NCBI GenBank assembly: GCA_964393205.1
Contig: CAYMSV010000001.1
Location: 103,440 to 167,439, forward strand
Length of the DNA: 64,000 nt
Direction: 5' to 3'
Origin: an uncultured Pseudomonadales bacterium
Lineage (GTDB): Bacteria; Patescibacteriota; Microgenomatia; UBA1400; PJMF01
Below the pieces are notes generated by a model. It was not told where the DNA came from. It worked only from the letters and a program-made list of their open reading frames with translations, and did no database searches. The stretch's first letter is position 1; the number at the start of each line of letters is the position of its first letter. Positions 25,930 to 57,566 of the stretch are shown here, in pieces. The position numbers were made by a program, and so were the translations under genes.

Positions 25930-28275
25930 TTAGCTGAGAGCGATTTTTAAAACTTCTTTTACATCTTTAACTGTTTGAAAATCCAAGTCTTTTTTAATTT
26001 CTTTGGGTATTTTTACTAAATCACGTTTATTATCCTGGGGAATAATTACTATTTTACTTCCAGCTCGGTGAGCAGCAATGGCTTTTTCTTTTAAACCACC
26101 TATGCGCAACACTCGACCTCGCAAGGTTACTTCGCCAGTCATAGCAACATCTCGACGGACAGCTCTCTTTTTAAAGGCAGAAACAATGGCGGTGGTAATG
26201 GTTACTCCCGCTGATGGTCCATCTTTAGGAACGGCTCCTTCTGGCACGTGAATGTGAACATCAGTTTGGTTAATTTTTTCAATATCAATTTTTAATTCTT
26301 TATGATGAGAACGAACATAAGTTAAAGCTGCTTGCGCTGATTCTTTCATGACGTCACCCAATTTACCAGTTAATTTAATTTTTCCTTTTCCTGGTGAAAG
26401 AGCGACTTCGACAAATAATATATCGCCACCGACACTGGTCCAAGCCAAACCTGCGGCCAATCCAACCTGATCGTTCTTTTCAGTAATAGTTTCATCGTAT
26501 ATTGGAGGACCAAGGAATTCTGATAGTCTTTTGTTAGTAACAGTAATGGTTTTTCTATTTTTTTCTAAAATTTCTCTCGCAGTTTTGCGCATTATTTTAT
26601 TAAGTTGTCTTTCTAAATTGCGCACTCCAGCTTCACGAGTATAGCGACTGATGATTTTTTTCAAAATCGTGTCGCTTAATTTGCTTTGAGTTTTTTTGAG
26701 GGCATTTTTTTTGACAGCTTTGGGAAGTAGGTAGCGCTTGGCAATTTCAAATTTTTCGTTAAGAGTGTAGCCAGAATATTGAATGACTTCTAAACGATCT
26801 AATAGTGCTGGTGGTACGCTGTCCAAAGTGTTGGCTGTAGCAATAAAGAGAACATTAGATAAATCATAAGGTACATCTAAGTAATGATCCTCAAAACTAA
26901 AGTTTTGCTCAGGGTCTAAAACTTCAAGCAAGGCACTACTGGGATCACCATGAAAATCGCGACCTAGTTTATCAATTTCATCTAGCATGAAAACTGGATT
27001 ATTGCTTCGAGCATTTTGTAAACCCTTGATAATACGACCAGGCATAGCGCCTACATAAGTGCGTCTATGTCCACGAATTTCTGATTCATCTCTGACTCCA
27101 CCTAGAGAAATTTTAATAAAGTGACGATTTAGACTTTTGGCAATACTTTGACCAATACTGGTTTTACCAACACCTGGTGGTCCAACAAAACATAAGATAG
27201 TAGGCAAGTTTTTTTCTTGATTATCATTTTTATTTTTTAACTGCATAACGGCCATGTGTTCCAGGACTCGATCTTTGACTTCTTTTAGTCCGTAATGATC
27301 TTGGTCCAAAGTTTTGGCGGCTCGTTTAATGTTGATATTAGTTTTTTTGTTTTTTTGCCAAGGTAAGTCAAAAACTAAATCCAACCAACTTCTTAAGTAG
27401 GAAGTTTCTGGATTATTTGGAGACATTTGTTCAAGTCGAGCAATTTCCTTCTCAACTTTTTCTTTTACCTCTTTTGGTAATTTTTTCTTTTTCAAAAGAT
27501 CACGATAGTCGTTGATACCTTCTTGCCCATCACTTAACTCTCCTAGTTCTTTTTGAATAGTGCGTAGTCGTTCTCTCAGCACACTTTCTCGCATGTGCTC
27601 ATCAAATTTTTCTTGAGTTTTAGTATTAACATCTTGTTCAATTTCTAGGATTTTGACTTCTTTAGATAAGTGTTCAATGACTAAACGAATTCTTTGTTTA
27701 ACATTGGTGGTTTCTAAAATCAATTGTTTTTTATTACTGGGAATTTTCAAAGTGCTGGCAATTTGGTCAGCCATTTCTCCCTCATTAACACCGCTTAATA
27801 ATTTAATAAAATTAAGGAATTCAATTTGTTTGCCCATTTGGACAGTTTGGCGAAACAGTTTTTGCAACTGGTTGCTCAAAGCAATTAATTCATCGTCACG
27901 CTCAATAAAGCTGGGTACTTTTTCAGCCACAGCTTGTAGAAAAGGCTGCTCTTGGACAAATTTTTGAATTTTAATACGGCTCACTCCCCTAACTAGTGCA
28001 CTAATATTGGCAGAATTTTTTAAAGTTTTTTCGATTGCTGCCAAGGTGCCAATTTGATAGAGGTCTTTAGATTGAGGTTGTTCAATTCGGGGATTCTTTT
28101 GGGTTAGTAAAATAATATGATTGCCTTGTTTTTGAGAATGACGAATAGCGTTAACCGACAACTCACGGCCAAAACCAAGCACTGATTCTGTTTGAGGAAA
28201 TAATACTCCTTCGCGGATTGGTACCACTGGTAAATTTAACAAGTTGCTAGGCAGTTGAATAATTTTACTGTTCAT
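25930..28275 (-). CDS. lon: ATP-dependent Lon protease
   Basis: LON N-domain, AAA+ Walker [10 protein letters not shown], protease domain DGPSAG with catalytic Ser, K in KIGG. Confidence 0.95.
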
Positions 28276-28323
28276 ATTTGATAAAGTAATTATACCCTAA
28301 TTTTAGGCAAAAATGGTGAGCAA

Positions 28324-28350
28324 TTGGCAGTCCAAAACTTTGACTGCTAA
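28324..28350 (-). promoter_or_regulatory. CIRCE-like inverted repeat (9-N9-9) about 50 nt upstream of lon; candidate HrcA-type heat-shock operator
   Basis: Plus strand TTGGCAGTC-CAAAACTTT-GACTGCTAA; on the minus strand TTAGCAGTC-N9-GACTGCCAA, compared with canonical CIRCE TTAGCACTC-N9-GAGTGCTAA. A TATAAT at about 28294-28289 (minus) lies 13 nt before the lon ATG. Confidence 0.5.
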
Positions 28351-28368
28351 ATAGGAGTTTTTAAAAAG

Positions 28369-28442
28369 TGGGTATGCTTGGAATCGAACCAAGGACCTCA
28401 GTCTTATCAGGACTGCGCTCTAACCAACTGAGCTACACACCC
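28369..28442 (-). tRNA. tRNA-Ile (anticodon GAT)
   Basis: Hand-folded: GGGTGTG acceptor (one G-U), D-arm GCTCAGTTGGTTAGAGC, anticodon arm CAGTC-CTGATAA-GACTG, T-arm CTTGG-TTCGATT-CCAAG, discriminator A; no encoded CCA. Confidence 0.85.
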
Positions 28443-28488
28443 ATTTATTTATTAAATTTACTTTAACAAAGCCATATTTTAGCACAAA

Positions 28489-31098
28489 TCAAGCTTTTAC
28501 CAAATCAAGCTTTTTCTTCGTCCAATCTAATTTAATTTTGTCACCAGCCTGAATTTTGTTTTTAATCATTTGGCTAGCTAGCTCATCTAAGATCTCTTTT
28601 TGAATGAGGCGCTTTAGTGGTCTGGCTCCAAAAACGTGATCATAGCCAGTTTCAGCTAAATGTTCGATTAATTGTTCACTAAATTCTAATTTGATTTCTT
28701 GTTCAGCTAGGCGGTTAGCAACTAGATCAAGTTGCAGTTGTACAATCTCTTTAATTTCTTTTTTATCTAGACTTTGGAATATAATAATATCATCTAATCT
28801 ATTCAAAAACTCTGGGCGAAAATGCACCTTTAGCAAACCATCTAAAGCCTTCTTTTGTTCAACTGGATCACTACTGGTTTCGCTAATAATTTGACTACCC
28901 AAATTGGAAGTCATAATGATAATACTGTTTTTAAAATTGACAGTACGACCTTTGCTATCAGTCAAATGACCTTCATCCAAAACCTGTAGAAGAATATTAA
29001 ATACTTCGCTATGAGCTTTTTCAATTTCATCTAGTAAAACTATAGTATAGGGATGGCGACGAATAGCTTCTGTTAATTGACCACCTTCTTCATAGCCAAC
29101 ATAACCTGGTGGCGAGCCGATGAGGCGAGCCACGCTATGTTTTTCCATATATTCACTCATATCGATGCGGGTAATCAGACGCTCATCATTAAAAAGTTGT
29201 TCGGCAAGAGCCTTGGCTAATTCTGTTTTACCCACACCAGTGGGTCCAAGGAACAAGAAGCTACCAATAGGTCTGCCCTCTTCGCTAATGCCAGCACGAT
29301 TACGACGAATAGCGCCAGCCACTGCTTCAATAGCTTGATTTTGCCCAACAACTCTTTGACCAAGTTCTTTCTCCAAATTTATGAGTTTTTCGGTTTCTTC
29401 AGTAAGCATGCGACTAACCGGAATGCCCGTCCATTTAGAAACTATAGTGGCAATATCGCTTTCATCAATTTCTTCTTTGAGCAATCTTTGTGTTGGGTCA
29501 ATATCAGCCATTTTCGCTTGAGCTTCTTTTACTTTTTTCTCCAACTGAGGAATTTCTCCATAATTAATGGCGGCGGCTCGTTCTAGATCATAATTTCGTT
29601 CAGCTTTTTTTGCTTCTTCGCGAAGTTCATCTAATTTTCGACTGTATTTTTTAATTGAATCTAAAATTTCTTTTTCTTTGCGCCAGCGCAGCTCCAAGCT
29701 TTTGTATTCTTCTTTTAGTTCTCCAATTTGTTTTTCAATGTTTTTTAAGCGATCCTCACTTTTTTGACCTCTTTCTTTTTTAAGTGATTCTTTTTCAATT
29801 TCTAATTGGCGAATTTCTCGCTCCAATTGATCAATACTGTTGGGTTTACTATCAATTTCGATGCGTAGTGCTGAGGCAGCTTCATCCATTAAATCGATAG
29901 CTTTATCTGGCAAGAAACGATCACTAATATATCGATGAGAAAGTTTAACTGCAGCAATAATAGCGCCATCTAAAATGCGCACTCCGTGATGTGCTTCATA
30001 TTTACTTTTAATACCTCGTAGAATAGAAATAGCATCATCTACTGAAGGTTCTTCAACCATTACTGGTTGAAAGCGTCTTTCTAGCGCACTGTCTTTTTCA
30101 ACATATTGGCGATACTCTTTTAGAGTGGTTGCACCAATGGTGCGCAAGGTACCACGAGCTAGCGCTGGTTTAAGTAAGTTGCCAGCATCAGTTGATCCTT
30201 CACTGGCTCCGGCGCCAACAATACTGTGTAATTCATCGATAAAGAGTATGATCTGTCCTTCACTCTTTTCAATTTCTTTGATTACGGCTTTTAATCGATC
30301 TTCAAACTCTCCACGATATTTAGCTCCGGCTATCAGAGAACCCATATCTAAAGCTAAGATTCTTTTATTTTTTAGTGCTTCTGGGACATCATCATCAATA
30401 ATTTTTTTGGCCAAACCTTCGACAATGGCAGTTTTACCAGTGCCTGGTTCGCCAACCAAAACCGGATTGTTTTTGGTGCGACGCGACAAAATTTGAGTAA
30501 TACGACGAATTTCTTCATTGCGACCAATGACAGGATCAATTTTTCCTGAACGAGCTAGACTGGTAAAATCTAAGCAATATTTTTCTAGAGCCTGATATTT
30601 GCCCTCGGGTTCTGGATCAGTAACTCGTTGTTGACCACGTACTGTTTTTAAAGTTTGCACGACTTGTTTGGGATCAAGTTCGGTAAGTTGGACAACTTTT
30701 TTTTGGTTTAATAGTGCCAAAAACAAATGCTCAGTACTAATGTATTCGTCTTTAAGTTTTACTGCTTCTGTTTCTGCTTGACTTAAAACCTTACTTAGTT
30801 CTGGGGAAGCGTAAGCTTGAGTGGGCGCATCTGTGCTAGGTAATTGTTTAAGTTCTTTTCTAATTAAAGAAGCAATTGTTTCTGGATTTTTATCTAATTG
30901 TTCAAGCAAATTAGGAATGATGCCTCCTACTTGTTCAACTAGGGCTAATAATAGGTGCCAAATTTCGATTTGACTATGTTTGAGTTTGCCAGCCAGCTGC
31001 ATAGCGTCTTGTACAGCTTCACTGGCTTTGGTGGTATAGCGATCAAAGTTCATAAGTATTCTTTCAAGTTTATTAAAGGCTTTAGTGTTTATAAGCAA
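28489..31098 (-). CDS. clpB: Chaperone ClpB (Hsp104 family disaggregase)
   Basis: Clp N-domain, two AAA+ modules (GEPGTGKTA and GPTGVGKTE Walker A) with long middle coiled-coil; 869 aa. Confidence 0.95.
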
Positions 31099-31138
31099 TA
31101 TTATTTTAGCGCGCTTGAAATATTTTGCATAGAGTCAA

Positions 31139-31165
31139 TTAGCAGACTAGAAAGGACTCTGCTAA
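31139..31165 (-). promoter_or_regulatory. CIRCE-like inverted repeat (9-N9-9) about 50 nt upstream of clpB; candidate HrcA-type heat-shock operator
   Basis: Plus strand TTAGCAGAC-TAGAAAGGA-CTCTGCTAA (embedded in a perfect 10-bp IR AATTAGCAGA...TCTGCTAATT at 31137-31167); same half-site family as the lon site. Confidence 0.5.
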
Positions 31166-31286
31166 TTAACTAAAAGTTGATTTTTACTTGATACTTCTTA
31201 TATATTTTGATACATTTTGATAGATTAAAACAATAAAAATATTGATTTTAACTCATCACTAATAAAAAATACAAAAAAATTAATTT

Positions 31287-31640
31287 TTATTTACCATAAC
31301 AAACATGAAAAAAATCTGCTATATCTTCGTAAATTTTTTCAATTTCTGAATCTGTAAGATCTTCATTGTTTTTTTCTGCAGAGCGAAGATTTTTATTTGA
31401 TTTTGACCTAGAATCTTCTTTGATCTTAGTAATAATAGTTTTTATAGCAAATTCTCTCAATTCGAAATCATAGGCAAAAACCTTTTGCATGGACTCATTA
31501 AAGCTATGAAGATAACTAAGAAGAGCTTTTAAGTCTTGTGGCGAATCTGATGAAAGTAATTTTTTAATAAGAGCTTGCGGGCCAATTTTGGCATGTTTTT
31601 CTCTTAATTCTTTTCCTCTTTTTTCTCTTTCTTTAGACAT
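31287..31640 (-). CDS. Hypothetical protein (117 aa), charged/helical
   Basis: ORF between 16S and clpB, no recognisable motif. Confidence 0.35.
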   Translation of the reverse strand: MSKEREKRGKELREKHAKIGPQALIKKLLSSDSPQDLKALLSYLHSFNESMQKVFAYDFELREFAIKTIITKIKEDSRSKSNKNLRSAEKNNEDLTDSEIEKIYEDIADFFHVCYGK

Positions 31641-31714: not shown

Positions 31715-31750
31715 AAAAAACGAGCCCAGTAGCTCGTTTTATTTTTTGAT
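31715..31750 (-). terminator. Rho-independent terminator hairpin (bidirectional) about 150 nt downstream of the 16S 3' end
   Basis: AAACGAGC-CCAGTA-GCTCGTTT stem-loop (about 31718-31739) flanked by A-run and T-run. Confidence 0.5.
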
Positions 31751-31884: not shown

Positions 31885-33375
31885 TAGAAAGGAGGTGATC
31901 CATCGGCACCTTCCAGTACCGATACCTTGTTACGACTTAACCCTCATCGCTAATCTCGCCGTAGAAGGGCCGTTCTCTTGCGAGTTACGGTCACCCGCTT
32001 CGGGCGCTACTAACTTTGCTGGTTTGACGGGCAGTGTGTACAAGGAGCGAGAACGTATTCACCGCAACCTGCTGATTTGCGATTACTACCGATTCCGACT
32101 TCATGCTCTCGAATTGCAGAGAACAATCTGAACTGAGGGGCCGTTTAAAGGATTGGCTCCGCCTTGCGGCTTCGCTACCCGTTGTCGGCTCCATTGTAGG
32201 ATGTGTGTTGCCCTGGATGTAAGGGTCATGCTGACTTGACGTCGTCCTCTCCTTCCTCCCTGCAAAAAGCAAGGCAGTCTCCCGTGACACTTGTAACACG
32301 GGATAAGGGTTGCGCTCGTTACCACACTTAAGTGGACGCCTCACGACACGAGCTGACGACAGCCATGCAACACCTGTGTAACACTCTCGAAGAAGATCTA
32401 GTTTCCTAGACCGTGCAGTTACATGTCAAACCCAGGTAAGGTATTTCGCTTTGTATCGAATTAAACCACATGCTCCACCGGTTGTGCGCTCCCCCGTCAA
32501 TTCCTTTGAGTTTTAACCTTGCGGTCGTAATCCCCAGGCGCCTTGCTTAACGCGTTAGCTTACATCACTCAATTCAAAGAATCAAGCAATTAGCAAGGAT
32601 CGTTTACGGTCTGGACTACAGGGGTCTCTAATCCCTTTTGCTACCCAAACTTTCGTCCCTGAGCGTCAGTTGTACTCCAGGAGCTCGCCTTCGCGAATGG
32701 TGTTCCTCTCGATATCTACGGATTTCACCCCTCCACCGAGAATTCCAGCTCCCCCTAGTAAACTCAATTCTATCAGTATTTCAACCTGTATCTGGAGTTG
32801 AGCTCCAGTATTAAAGTCAAAACTTAATAAAACGCCGACGGACGCTTTACGCCCAATAAATCCGGATAATGCTTGCACCCTACGTATTACCGAGGCTTCT
32901 GGCACGTAGTTAGCAGGTGCTTTCTAGCAGGGTACCCTCAAAAATTGTTCCCCTGCCACAGTGGTTTACACTCCGAAGAGCGTCTTCCCACACGCGGTGT
33001 CGCTGCGTCAGGCTTTCGCCCATTGCGCAATATTCCCAGTTGCTGCCACCCGTAGGTGTAGGTTCCGTGTCTCAGTAACCTTGTGGCCGGTCGTGCTCTC
33101 ACACCGGCTACCTGTCATCGGCTTGGTGAGCTATTACCTCACCAACTACCTGATAGGACATAGGCCTCTCCCTAAGCGCCCGAAGGCTTTGATCCGGAGA
33201 TCACATGCGGTATTACCCAATCTTTCGACTGGCTATTCCCCACTTAGGGGTAAGTTCCTATGTTGTACTCACCCGTCTGCTACTTGTGTTAGTCCGAAGA
33301 CTAACTTACCGTTCAACTTGCATGCTTAAAGCACACCGCCAGCATTCATCCTGAGCCAGGATCAAACTCTTAAAA
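31885..33375 (-). rRNA. rrs: 16S ribosomal RNA (complete, about 1.49 kb), not linked to 23S/5S
   Basis: Minus-strand 5' end AGAGTTTGATCCTGGCTCAG (RC at 33351-33370), 3' end AAGTCGTAACAAGGTA...GGATCACCTCCTTTCT (RC at about 31887-31936); the internal 515F site is divergent (see findings). ORFs predicted inside this interval are spurious. Confidence 0.9.
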
Positions 33376-33604
33376 AAGTTTGATTTGCTCTATAAAAAAA
33401 TAAAAGTCAAATTGACGAGATGCAATCTTTAGTTTTAAAAACCAAAGATAAAATCTCTCTTGCACTTTCTATCACTATATTTGCTGTTAAAAAAATAGCT
33501 GTCTTTACTTGTTAAAGATCAAAAAAACTTCTTTTTAAGCAAAAAAAAGAAAGGAGAAAACTTCTAGCTTTCTCTAATCATCTCTCTTTGCCTGAAGTGG
33601 GAGT

Positions 33605-56015: not shown

Positions 56016-57566
56016 ATGATGATTTCAAAAAAAGAATTTATAGAAAAAAAAGACAAACTGATTACTCCGAATACGGATTATCAAGATTATTTAGATAATA
56101 AGTTACGCACTAGCGCTGAAGAAAAAATTAACGATAACATTGAGCGAGCAACTAATTCAATTAATTTCGTTGTTGAAGGGGTGTTACCAGACACTATTCC
56201 CAGTCTTGAGCGAGATCAAAGTTTTTCTTTTAGCACTTTGTTTATTTTAAAAAAATTAGGCTTACTAGATGCTTTAATTAAAACTCAGCCTGGAGATAAA
56301 GAAGAACTACAGATTAAGGATATTAGTGTTGCTATTAATCGTTACTCAAGCATGGGTTTTAGTTTGGCTTTTTTAAACATTGAGGGCTTGGAAGAAAAAA
56401 AAGAAGCCTTACTGCAAGAGTTGAAGAACACTCCTTTTTGGCAACTTTTTGTTGAAACGGCTCAACTCCATTCCCCGGGAGATGAAACTTCTATAAATAC
56501 AAAAAATTTTAGATTTCAAGACGATCTTGTAGCTAACGCAGCGCTTTTTTCTCGTCTTAATATTTTAGAAGGTGTTTGTCGTCCTTACAGTTATCAAACT
56601 GGAGAGTCCCTTGAGGGATTAGCAACAAAGGCTTTACTTGATAGTTGTCGACAACACATGGTTTTAGATGATCAAGGTAAACTAAAATTTATCAATTTTT
56701 CTTTGGATGAGGGAATTAGCCTTAATTTATTACCAAGTAATCAAGAAATTACAGCAGAAAATTTGTTTGATACAGATTGGCAACTACAAATTACGAGCCA
56801 AGTTGAGCAACAAACGATGGAGGTAGCTAATCAAAGTTATCAGTCTCGTTGTGAAGCCTTTATTAAACGACCAACTGGTCAGGTTTTAATTGAAGCACTT
56901 AAGCATGCTAATTTGAAATTTTCTGCTAATTTTGAAAATTTTTTAACGATGAATAGAAGTCCCGCATTCAATGATCGTTATGGGGGTGCTTATACTCATA
57001 TTAGTCGCTTATTAGCCAAGGTTTTGTGGTCCAGAGATTTAAATAAAATGGCAAATATATTTGTTAATGAAAACAATGATAAAGCTAGCTTGGAAGAATT
57101 AAATTTATTGGCTGATTATCCAAATACTGATCACGCTTTTTCTAGTTTACAAAATATCTTGAGACAATTACTCGACAGAGAGGTAGATGATGATACTAGT
57201 GACATTGAAGTCTTATCGACAGCAATTGATGTGAGTGATGGGGCTTGTTTTGATGTTAGTACCTATTATTGTCAGGCTTTGAGGTATGGTCAACTTTATT
57301 TGAAATTGATTAATGGTAAACCATTTTTATTAAAAACTCATGGTGCGAGAACCCTGATTAATTTACGACCAATTTGGTTTAATGGTGTTAATTTACCCAA
57401 AGGTAGTTTGTTTACAATGACTGGTGAAAATGAATTCGCTTTTTTGCGTCTCACTCCATTCATGTTTGATGATCGAGAAGACATGGTCTCTGCTTTTGGC
57501 ACAGAGGTGATTAAAGCTGAAGATAGTGGCGAAGACTTATTGGCAGTAGCTAATTATGACTGGTAA
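56016..57566 (+). CDS. Hypothetical cytoplasmic protein (516 aa), no recognisable domain
   Basis: Long uninterrupted ORF, no signal peptide or TM segment, no motif recognised by eye. Confidence 0.5.
   Translation: MMISKKEFIEKKDKLITPNTDYQDYLDNKLRTSAEEKINDNIERATNSINFVVEGVLPDTIPSLERDQSFSFSTLFILKKLGLLDALIKTQPGDKEELQIKDISVAINRYSSMGFSLAFLNIEGLEEKKEALLQELKNTPFWQLFVETAQLHSPGDETSINTKNFRFQDDLVANAALFSRLNILEGVCRPYSYQTGESLEGLATKALLDSCRQHMVLDDQGKLKFINFSLDEGISLNLLPSNQEITAENLFDTDWQLQITSQVEQQTMEVANQSYQSRCEAFIKRPTGQVLIEALKHANLKFSANFENFLTMNRSPAFNDRYGGAYTHISRLLAKVLWSRDLNKMANIFVNENNDKASLEELNLLADYPNTDHAFSSLQNILRQLLDREVDDDTSDIEVLSTAIDVSDGACFDVSTYYCQALRYGQLYLKLINGKPFLLKTHGARTLINLRPIWFNGVNLPKGSLFTMTGENEFAFLRLTPFMFDDREDMVSAFGTEVIKAEDSGEDLLAVANYDW

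Follow-up and report, generated by a model that had tools for sequence, protein, structure and literature searches.

Two palindromes in front of lon and clpB

The DNA analysed here, referred to below as the window, is a stretch of 64,000 nt from contig CAYMSV010000001.1 (positions 103,440 to 167,439), part of an assembly deposited under the name of an uncultured Pseudomonadales bacterium and placed among the Patescibacteria (Microgenomatia) by its GTDB lineage. The DNA of the source genome has 35% G+C; the relatives of its Lon protein at 86-89% identity carry the name Candidatus Pacebacteria, and those near 70% the names Woesebacteria or Patescibacteria group. The source is thus taken to be an uncultured, ultra-small member of the Patescibacteria. 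Only two heat-shock genes are found within the window, lon (25930..28275, minus strand; endopeptidase La, 781 aa, TIGR00763, 912.6 bits) and clpB (28489..31053, minus strand; ATP-dependent chaperone, 854 aa, TIGR03346, 1255.9 bits). The order on the minus strand is 16S rRNA gene, intrinsic terminator, small open reading frame (ORF), clpB, tRNA-Ile(GAT) and lon. For clpB, the ATG at 31053 (giving 854 aa) is the start picked by gene callers, also on public contigs; the first in-frame TTG is at 31098. Each of the two genes, which are the ones putatively controlled, is preceded by a palindrome resembling CIRCE (controlling inverted repeat of chaperone expression), the operator of the HrcA repressor. 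The consensus of CIRCE is TTAGCACTC-N9-GAGTGCTAA; the signal is reported to be highly conserved, groESL being the constant member of the regulon (PMC545781).

Both palindromes are 9-N9-9 inverted repeats, given here as read on the minus strand. The lon site, TTAGCAGTC-N9-GACTGCCAA (28350..28324, spacer aaagttttg), starts 17 nt past tRNA-Ile and ends 48 nt ahead of the lon ATG (28275). The clpB site, TTAGCAGAG-N9-GTCTGCTAA (31165..31139, spacer tcctttcta), ends 85 nt ahead of the ATG at 31053 and 40 nt ahead of the TTG at 31098; it lies within a perfect 10-bp inverted repeat (AATTAGCAGA/TCTGCTAATT) that extends to 14 nt at 93% complementarity (arms 31133-31146 and 31158-31171). A first-pass annotation of the window had reported the two palindromes and the perfect 10-bp repeat, and all were found where and as it described them; its statement that both sites lie about 50 nt before the start codon is right for lon but not for clpB, if the ATG is taken as the start. 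The outer hexamers TTAGCA and TGCTAA, separated by exactly 15 nt, were our criterion for CIRCE, and both sites show this arrangement, with 12 matching bases out of 12 for clpB and 11 out of 12 for lon. The inner triplets differ from one site to the other (GTC/GAC for lon versus GAG/GTC for clpB). The consistent inner-triplet difference from CIRCE that had been claimed thus reduces to a single feature, a purine in place of C at position 7 of the half-site. In the lineage of the window (seven sites, from the window and loci L007, L008 and L009), this position is G in 11 half-sites out of 14, A in 3 and C in none. A literature search with the string TTAGCAGTC returned only unrelated primer matches.

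Conservation of the sites in relatives

The pattern TTAGCA-N15-TGCTAA with at most one mismatch has two matches in the window, versus 0.55 expected, and at least two were obtained in 9 of 100 shuffles: the match count is by itself insignificant. A third match, with two mismatches (57540-57566), falls where an unrelated ORF ends and is attributed to chance. Significance comes from location, because both matches with at most one mismatch fall in the leaders of the only two heat-shock genes of the window. By our own estimate from these counts, about 0.001 chance matches are expected per leader region of about 100 nt, and about 1e-6 for both leaders.

A non-chance origin is further backed by the conservation of the sites in relatives. 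TTAGCA-N15-TGC(T/C)AA is present at the same place before lon in L007 (Lon 86% identical to that of the window), L008 (77%) and L009 (70%). Orthologues of the clpB site were found in L007, L008, L097 (ClpB 74.5%) and L024 (69%), the ClpB identities ranging from 69% to 85%. L097 and L024, as well as L108 and L042 (Lon 70%), which also have the site before lon, are further members of the lineage found through the genome scan described below. What these relatives (69-86% protein identity) share is the pair of outer hexamers at a distance of 15 nt; the 9-nt spacers and the flanks diverge.

Distribution of the purine-7 variant

The pattern AWTTAGCAR-N13-YTGCTAAWT, which describes the purine-7 variant, was searched for in one genome per species (185,579 species) and gave at least 120 loci, for which downstream gene families were assigned by clustering, Pfam and hidden Markov model searches. 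Seven of the 120 loci listed correspond to a Haliscomenobacter repeat (see below). Among the other 113, a heat-shock gene was found directly downstream and in the correct orientation in 69, so that the presence of the motif at chaperone genes, proposed as a check in the first-pass annotation, is borne out in relatives and in public genomes. The targets listed are groES (17), hrcA (15), clpB-type genes (12), lon (8), hsp20 (7), dnaJ (4), dnaK (3) and htpG (3), and the loci span Clostridia, Dehalococcoidia, Cloacimonadota, Chlamydiae, Mycoplasmopsis and many Patescibacteria. At some Firmicutes loci, purine-7 sites adjoin canonical ones. In a genome named Pacebacteria, groES has a TTGACA-16-TAAAAT promoter followed by TTAGCAATT-N9-GACTGCTAA, and hsp20 of Shapirobacteria also has a site. 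From the nature of the targets and the broad spread of the loci, it follows that the purine-7 spelling is a widely used form of CIRCE. Since it is common at hrcA and groES sites elsewhere, the deviation seen in the window can be regarded as a tolerated or lineage-typical variant.

To see how far the site is associated with lon in a sample not chosen by motif, lon loci were picked from metagenomes by Lon similarity; most have a distant Lon (45-62% identity) and the one close relative is incomplete. The palindrome, in the same 6-N15-6 form, was present immediately before lon in all 19 of the nearest loci listed for which upstream DNA was available. The Lon proteins of these loci are 49-62% identical to that of the window, which is the range of named Lon proteins of the candidate phyla radiation (CPR). 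The more distant loci listed had it in only 3 cases out of 56 (22 out of 75 overall). Position 7 in this wider lon set is G in 25 half-sites, C in 10, A in 7 and T in 2, out of 44; judged from these half-sites, Patescibacteria usually have G at position 7, and the lineage of the window is not special in this respect.

Three side observations were made on the scanned loci. The hrcA promoters of L043, L045, L066 and L114 (Clostridia, Bacilli, Lachnospiraceae) contain two CIRCE-type repeats each, the first holding the -35 TTGAC in its 9-nt spacer and the second coming after the -10 box, with canonical and purine-7 half-sites mixed. In Haliscomenobacter sp. JTS-AC203, seven contigs of one assembly (L084, L085, L090, L105, L107, L126 and L129) carry the perfect palindrome TTAGCAGCCGCC-TTCG/GAAG-GGCGGCTGCTAA, in most cases some 100 nt into the fetched stretch, whose start is often a contig end; the palindrome has the look of the end of a repeated or mobile element and is unrelated to CIRCE. 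Lastly, L042, L097, L073 and L088 (CAZEEV01, CAZWOQ01, CAYWEH01 and CAZWBE01) are labelled uncultured Pseudomonadales or Gammaproteobacteria at NCBI. These labels look wrong, because the Lon and ClpB proteins of L042 and L097 are 70-75% identical to those of the window, and the short HrcA of L073 and L088 groups with Microgenomates proteins.

HrcA in related groups

A profile built from short HrcA proteins of the CPR gave at least 120 matches. Those listed (P0241-P0360) are nearly all of 246 aa with the PF01628 domain, and several are named as Microgenomates group or Roizmanbacteria proteins, including 'Heat-inducible transcription repressor hrcA'; genomes under these two names commonly encode HrcA. 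The four Microgenomates-type loci fetched by protein (L211-L214) all have an hrcA-grpE-dnaK-dnaJ operon, and in all four a TTAGCAG-type site lies within the promoter (cTTGACAnaTTAGCAG...TTGCTAA), where it ends 2-46 nt before the hrcA ATG; the pattern of these promoters is cTTGACAn-a-TTAGCAG..-N9-..TTGCTAA.

The length of HrcA is about 233-249 aa in the groups of L023, L073, L088 and L211-L214, the protein of the Gribaldobacteria locus L023 having 233 aa. The short HrcA aligns to residues 14-102 of Thermotoga maritima HrcA (PDB 1STZ) and then again, weakly and non-significantly, from about residue 214. BLAST comparison with full-length HrcA proteins gave the same gap. From these alignments we conclude that about 100 central residues are missing from the short form. 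The missing segment presumably includes the inserted dimerising domain of the solved HrcA structure.

Position of the sites relative to predicted promoters

In most Patescibacteria the promoters of lon and hrcA are built around the operator (L132-L155, L028, L093, L098, L122 and L211-L214): a -35 TTGACA borders on the distal half-site, the proximal one is overlapped by the -10 box (TAGACT, TAGATT or TATATT, in many cases preceded by TGn), and the start codon is 1-20 nt past the operator. With the operator embedded in this way and the start codon so close, HrcA would occlude the promoter and the mRNAs would be leaderless or nearly so.

The arrangement predicted for the window is different. For lon, the predicted -10 box TATAAT (28289..28294, minus strand) comes 29 nt after the operator end, leaving 13 nt to the ATG; both the box and the 29-nt spacing are kept in the window, L007, L008 and L009. 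For clpB, the predicted promoter (31103..31131, minus strand) consists of a -35 TATGCA (31131..31126) that starts 7 nt after the operator end, a 17-nt spacer and a -10 TAAAAT (31108..31103). The same layout is repeated in L007 (-35 TATGCA) and L008 (-35 TTGGCA), where TAAAAT is 30 nt past the operator end. In L024, L097, L042 and L108, which are more distant members of the lineage, the TTGCTA of the proximal half also serves as the -35 box, and the -10 box is found 15-16 nt after the repeat. Four Cloacimonadota hsp20 loci have the same spacing of 29-30 nt between operator end and -10 box as the window, which makes it probable that this displaced geometry is functional.

A conserved AT-rich block with three TATCAA(A/G) repeats (31187..31222, minus strand) is located just upstream of the clpB operator. 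Related blocks adjoin the operator in L007, L008, L024, L097, L042, L108 and L009; the sequence of the TATCAA(A) block is cTATCAAAatgTATCAAAatatataagaagTATCAAG, and a palindromic form, TTGATATATCAATCC, is found in some relatives. No enrichment of GTATCAA was detected in the window (13 matches versus 8.7 expected). The block may be a second regulatory site or a UP-like element, and may be separate from the operator.

Neighbouring features

The 16S rRNA gene (31888-33377, minus strand) is followed by a strong intrinsic terminator (31740..31717, minus strand) that ends its transcript, on which ground read-through from 16S into clpB was rejected. Between this terminator and the clpB promoter is a 117-aa ORF (31287-31640, minus strand) to which neither Pfam nor NCBIfam gave a match. 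Gene callers report it on contigs of the same species but report nothing at the corresponding place in L007 or L008, and it may be spurious. The tRNA-Ile(GAT) gene (28368-28442, minus strand) has a predicted promoter of its own, TTGGTA-16-TGcTAAAAT (28503..28476, minus strand), with a TGn-extended -10. Here the terminator, the small ORF and clpB stand between 16S and this tRNA gene, whose normal place is the 16S-23S spacer, and lon comes after it; a 23S gene was not found within the 64-kb window. The order clpB, tRNA-Ile, lon is common to the window, L007 and L008, the latter two having, upstream of clpB, a 16S-sized gap without any called gene. L009 and L108 have no clpB upstream of tRNA-Ile and lon, and what now stands ahead of tRNA-Ile-lon in L108 is an operator and promoter of the clpB type.

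Interpretation

We consider it highly probable that the palindromes before lon and clpB are HrcA/CIRCE operators in a patescibacterial spelling. This putative identity is grounded in the targets found by the scan, the 19 lon loci out of 19 and the four hrcA operons out of four; an HrcA-type operator common to the two genes, as put forward in the first-pass annotation, is thus supported by the tests on relatives and public genomes. The operator model suggested for Patescibacteria is A(A/T)TTAGCA-R-N13-Y-TGCTAATT, in which the C at position 7 would be replaced by a purine, mostly G. We infer from the related groups that the window's own genome encodes HrcA, probably in the short 246-aa form. At normal temperature, an HrcA dimer bound to each site would hold transcription of clpB and lon low; as unfolded proteins build up, HrcA would become inactive and both genes would be derepressed. 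In the established Bacillus model, such inactivation results from GroEL being titrated away. Given the displaced sites, repression in the sub-lineage of the window could operate by steric exclusion of sigma region 4 or of the alpha C-terminal domain of RNA polymerase. At lon, the operator could also block read-through from the tRNA-Ile promoter, which would have to cross it. The sites, their conservation, their link to heat-shock genes and hrcA across genomes and the occurrence of HrcA in related groups are observed; the binding of HrcA, the positions of the promoters and the mode of repression are inferred.

Several observations weigh against this reading. The lon site departs from the outer hexamers at one base (TGCCAA), and the published inner triplet of CIRCE, CTC/GAG, is absent from both sites. 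Unusually for the site of a CIRCE repressor, the window sites lie upstream of the predicted -35 and -10 boxes; the predicted lon promoter has no recognisable -35 box, and the promoters were predicted from the consensus alone. Neither hrcA nor groESL nor dnaK was found within the 64 kb or in the sequence fetched beyond one end of the window, which showed no other heat-shock gene either, and none of the HrcA matches listed is on the 537,639-bp source contig or on the 804,852- and 828,603-bp contigs. A GroEL search seeded from the Pacebacteria locus found another lineage only, with no match on the 537,639-, 804,852- and 828,603-bp contigs. That the hrcA, groES and dnaK genes belonging to the same genome as the window did not turn up is the main reason why HrcA control is not put forward more firmly.

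The explanations that compete with HrcA control by steric exclusion do not fare equally well. One of them, which we think unlikely, keeps HrcA and changes its mode of action: in the Pacebacteria-like sub-lineage of the window, CIRCE would have moved out of the promoter to 29-30 bp before the -10 box, where the short HrcA would read it and act, with a different dimerisation, by a mechanism other than occlusion. Such a mechanism might consist in blocking the alpha C-terminal domain or UP-element contacts, in halting tRNA read-through like a roadblock, or even in activation.

We also think it improbable that a different regulator with CIRCE-like recognition has taken over in a lineage that lost hrcA. 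Such a replacement would fit the lack of hrcA in the window and the fetched flank, the inner triplet unlike that of CIRCE and the operator upstream of the predicted promoters. It does not fit the presence of the same variant before hrcA itself, in 15 of the scan loci listed and in all four Microgenomates hrcA operons, nor the conservation of the hrcA-grpE-dnaK-dnaJ operon in the wider group. Moreover, we know of no regulator other than HrcA that recognises TTAGCA-N15-TGCTAA.

The sites could also be non-functional relics of a promoter-embedded CIRCE, left behind after new promoters arose downstream. Relatives do have the operator inside the promoter, and in the sub-lineage of the window the -35 flank and the overlapping -10 have decayed, the new -10 being 29-30 nt downstream. 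Relics, however, would not be expected to keep their hexamers and the 29-30-nt spacing at 70-86% Lon identity when the intergenic DNA around them has diverged, and the same geometry is found at Cloacimonadota hsp20; we therefore regard decay as very improbable.

Slightly less credit still is given to the possibility that the repeats act as RNA hairpins, through which transcripts of the 16S rRNA gene or of tRNA-Ile would be terminated, processed or stabilised. Both sites are downstream of stable-RNA genes and the clpB repeat folds well (-17.1 kcal/mol, z = -5.8). But the lon repeat folds weakly (z = -1.5), and shuffled sequences fold as well as its orthologues in L007 and L009, the L007 fold bypassing the repeat altogether. 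The inner triplets show no co-variation that would keep pairing, the conserved part being the outer hexamer sequence. There is no U-run after the repeats, and the 16S transcript has its separate terminator at 31740..31717. The poor folds and the lack of inner-triplet co-variation argue that the constraint is on the DNA sequence and not on a hairpin. Chance, finally, which the not unusual occurrence of two matches in 64 kb would allow, is at odds with the location of both in the leaders of the only heat-shock genes and is effectively refuted by their conservation in many relatives; it has next to no probability left.

Comparison with known systems

The system of the window resembles the CIRCE/HrcA system of the Bacillus subtilis type in its 9-N9-9 architecture, in having the same hexamers at the same spacing and in its position ahead of protein-quality-control genes; in genomes related to the window, the element also precedes hrcA-grpE-dnaK-dnaJ and groES. 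It differs by a purine (G or A) where CIRCE has C at position 7 and a loosely conserved inner triplet, by its targets in the window (lon and clpB, not groESL or dnaK), and by the location of the operator, 29-30 nt upstream of the predicted -10 box and not over or after the promoter. A further difference is the HrcA of the related groups which, at 246 aa, has about 100 central residues fewer than that of Thermotoga maritima.

A precedent is provided by the Mollicutes: in Mycoplasma and Spiroplasma, CIRCE controls lon, clpB and dnaK (PMC5138195), and a CIRCE has been described for lon of M. pneumoniae (PMC7737663). Both groups are genome-reduced, have CIRCE-type sites at lon and clpB and count HrcA among very few regulators. 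The Mollicutes, however, belong to another phylum, and for them a highly conserved, canonical CIRCE has been described; the scan did find purine-7 sites at two Mycoplasmopsis loci (L029 and L041). This precedent bears on the lineage-specific heat-shock regulon proposed in the first-pass annotation: the operators at lon and clpB stand, but the variant is widespread and the extension of CIRCE to these two genes was already known.

Two other repressors of heat-shock genes were considered. CtsR controls the clp ATPase genes of Firmicutes (PMC3472708). The TATCAAA-atg-TATCAAA block near the clpB operator shares the heptad-N3-heptad layout of its box but not the sequence. To our knowledge, CtsR is known only from Firmicutes. 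A search for the CtsR box (RGTCAAA-NAN-RGTCAAA, up to three mismatches) found none in the lon or clpB leader; the sole close match (30969-30985) falls within the coding part of clpB, and its synonymous positions show no conservation. Papers on C. jejuni and H. pylori describe HspR as repressing heat-shock genes (PMC7464140, PMC6032397). Its operator, the HspR-associated inverted repeat (HAIR; CTTGAGT-N7-ACTCAAG, up to three mismatches), gave eight weak matches in the window, none of them near lon or clpB. In some bacteria clpB and lon are among the targets of HspR, which can exert its control from a position upstream of the promoter.

Significance for Patescibacteria

Gene regulation in Patescibacteria (the CPR) is almost unstudied, and our full-text searches found no literature on HrcA in this group beyond a survey of the oral microbiota that names it once. 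What is new here is modest: the consensus dominated by G at position 7 in the phylum, the short HrcA and the upstream-displaced operator of one sub-lineage. Beyond these features, the finding extends a very thoroughly studied system in a way that was to be expected. It nevertheless offers a concrete regulon for reduced genomes, in which a short HrcA acting through a G7-type CIRCE would control hrcA-grpE-dnaK-dnaJ, groES, hsp20, lon and clpB, and the corrected operator model could be used for annotating such genomes. It also implies that many of the lon and hrcA mRNAs of Patescibacteria should be leaderless.

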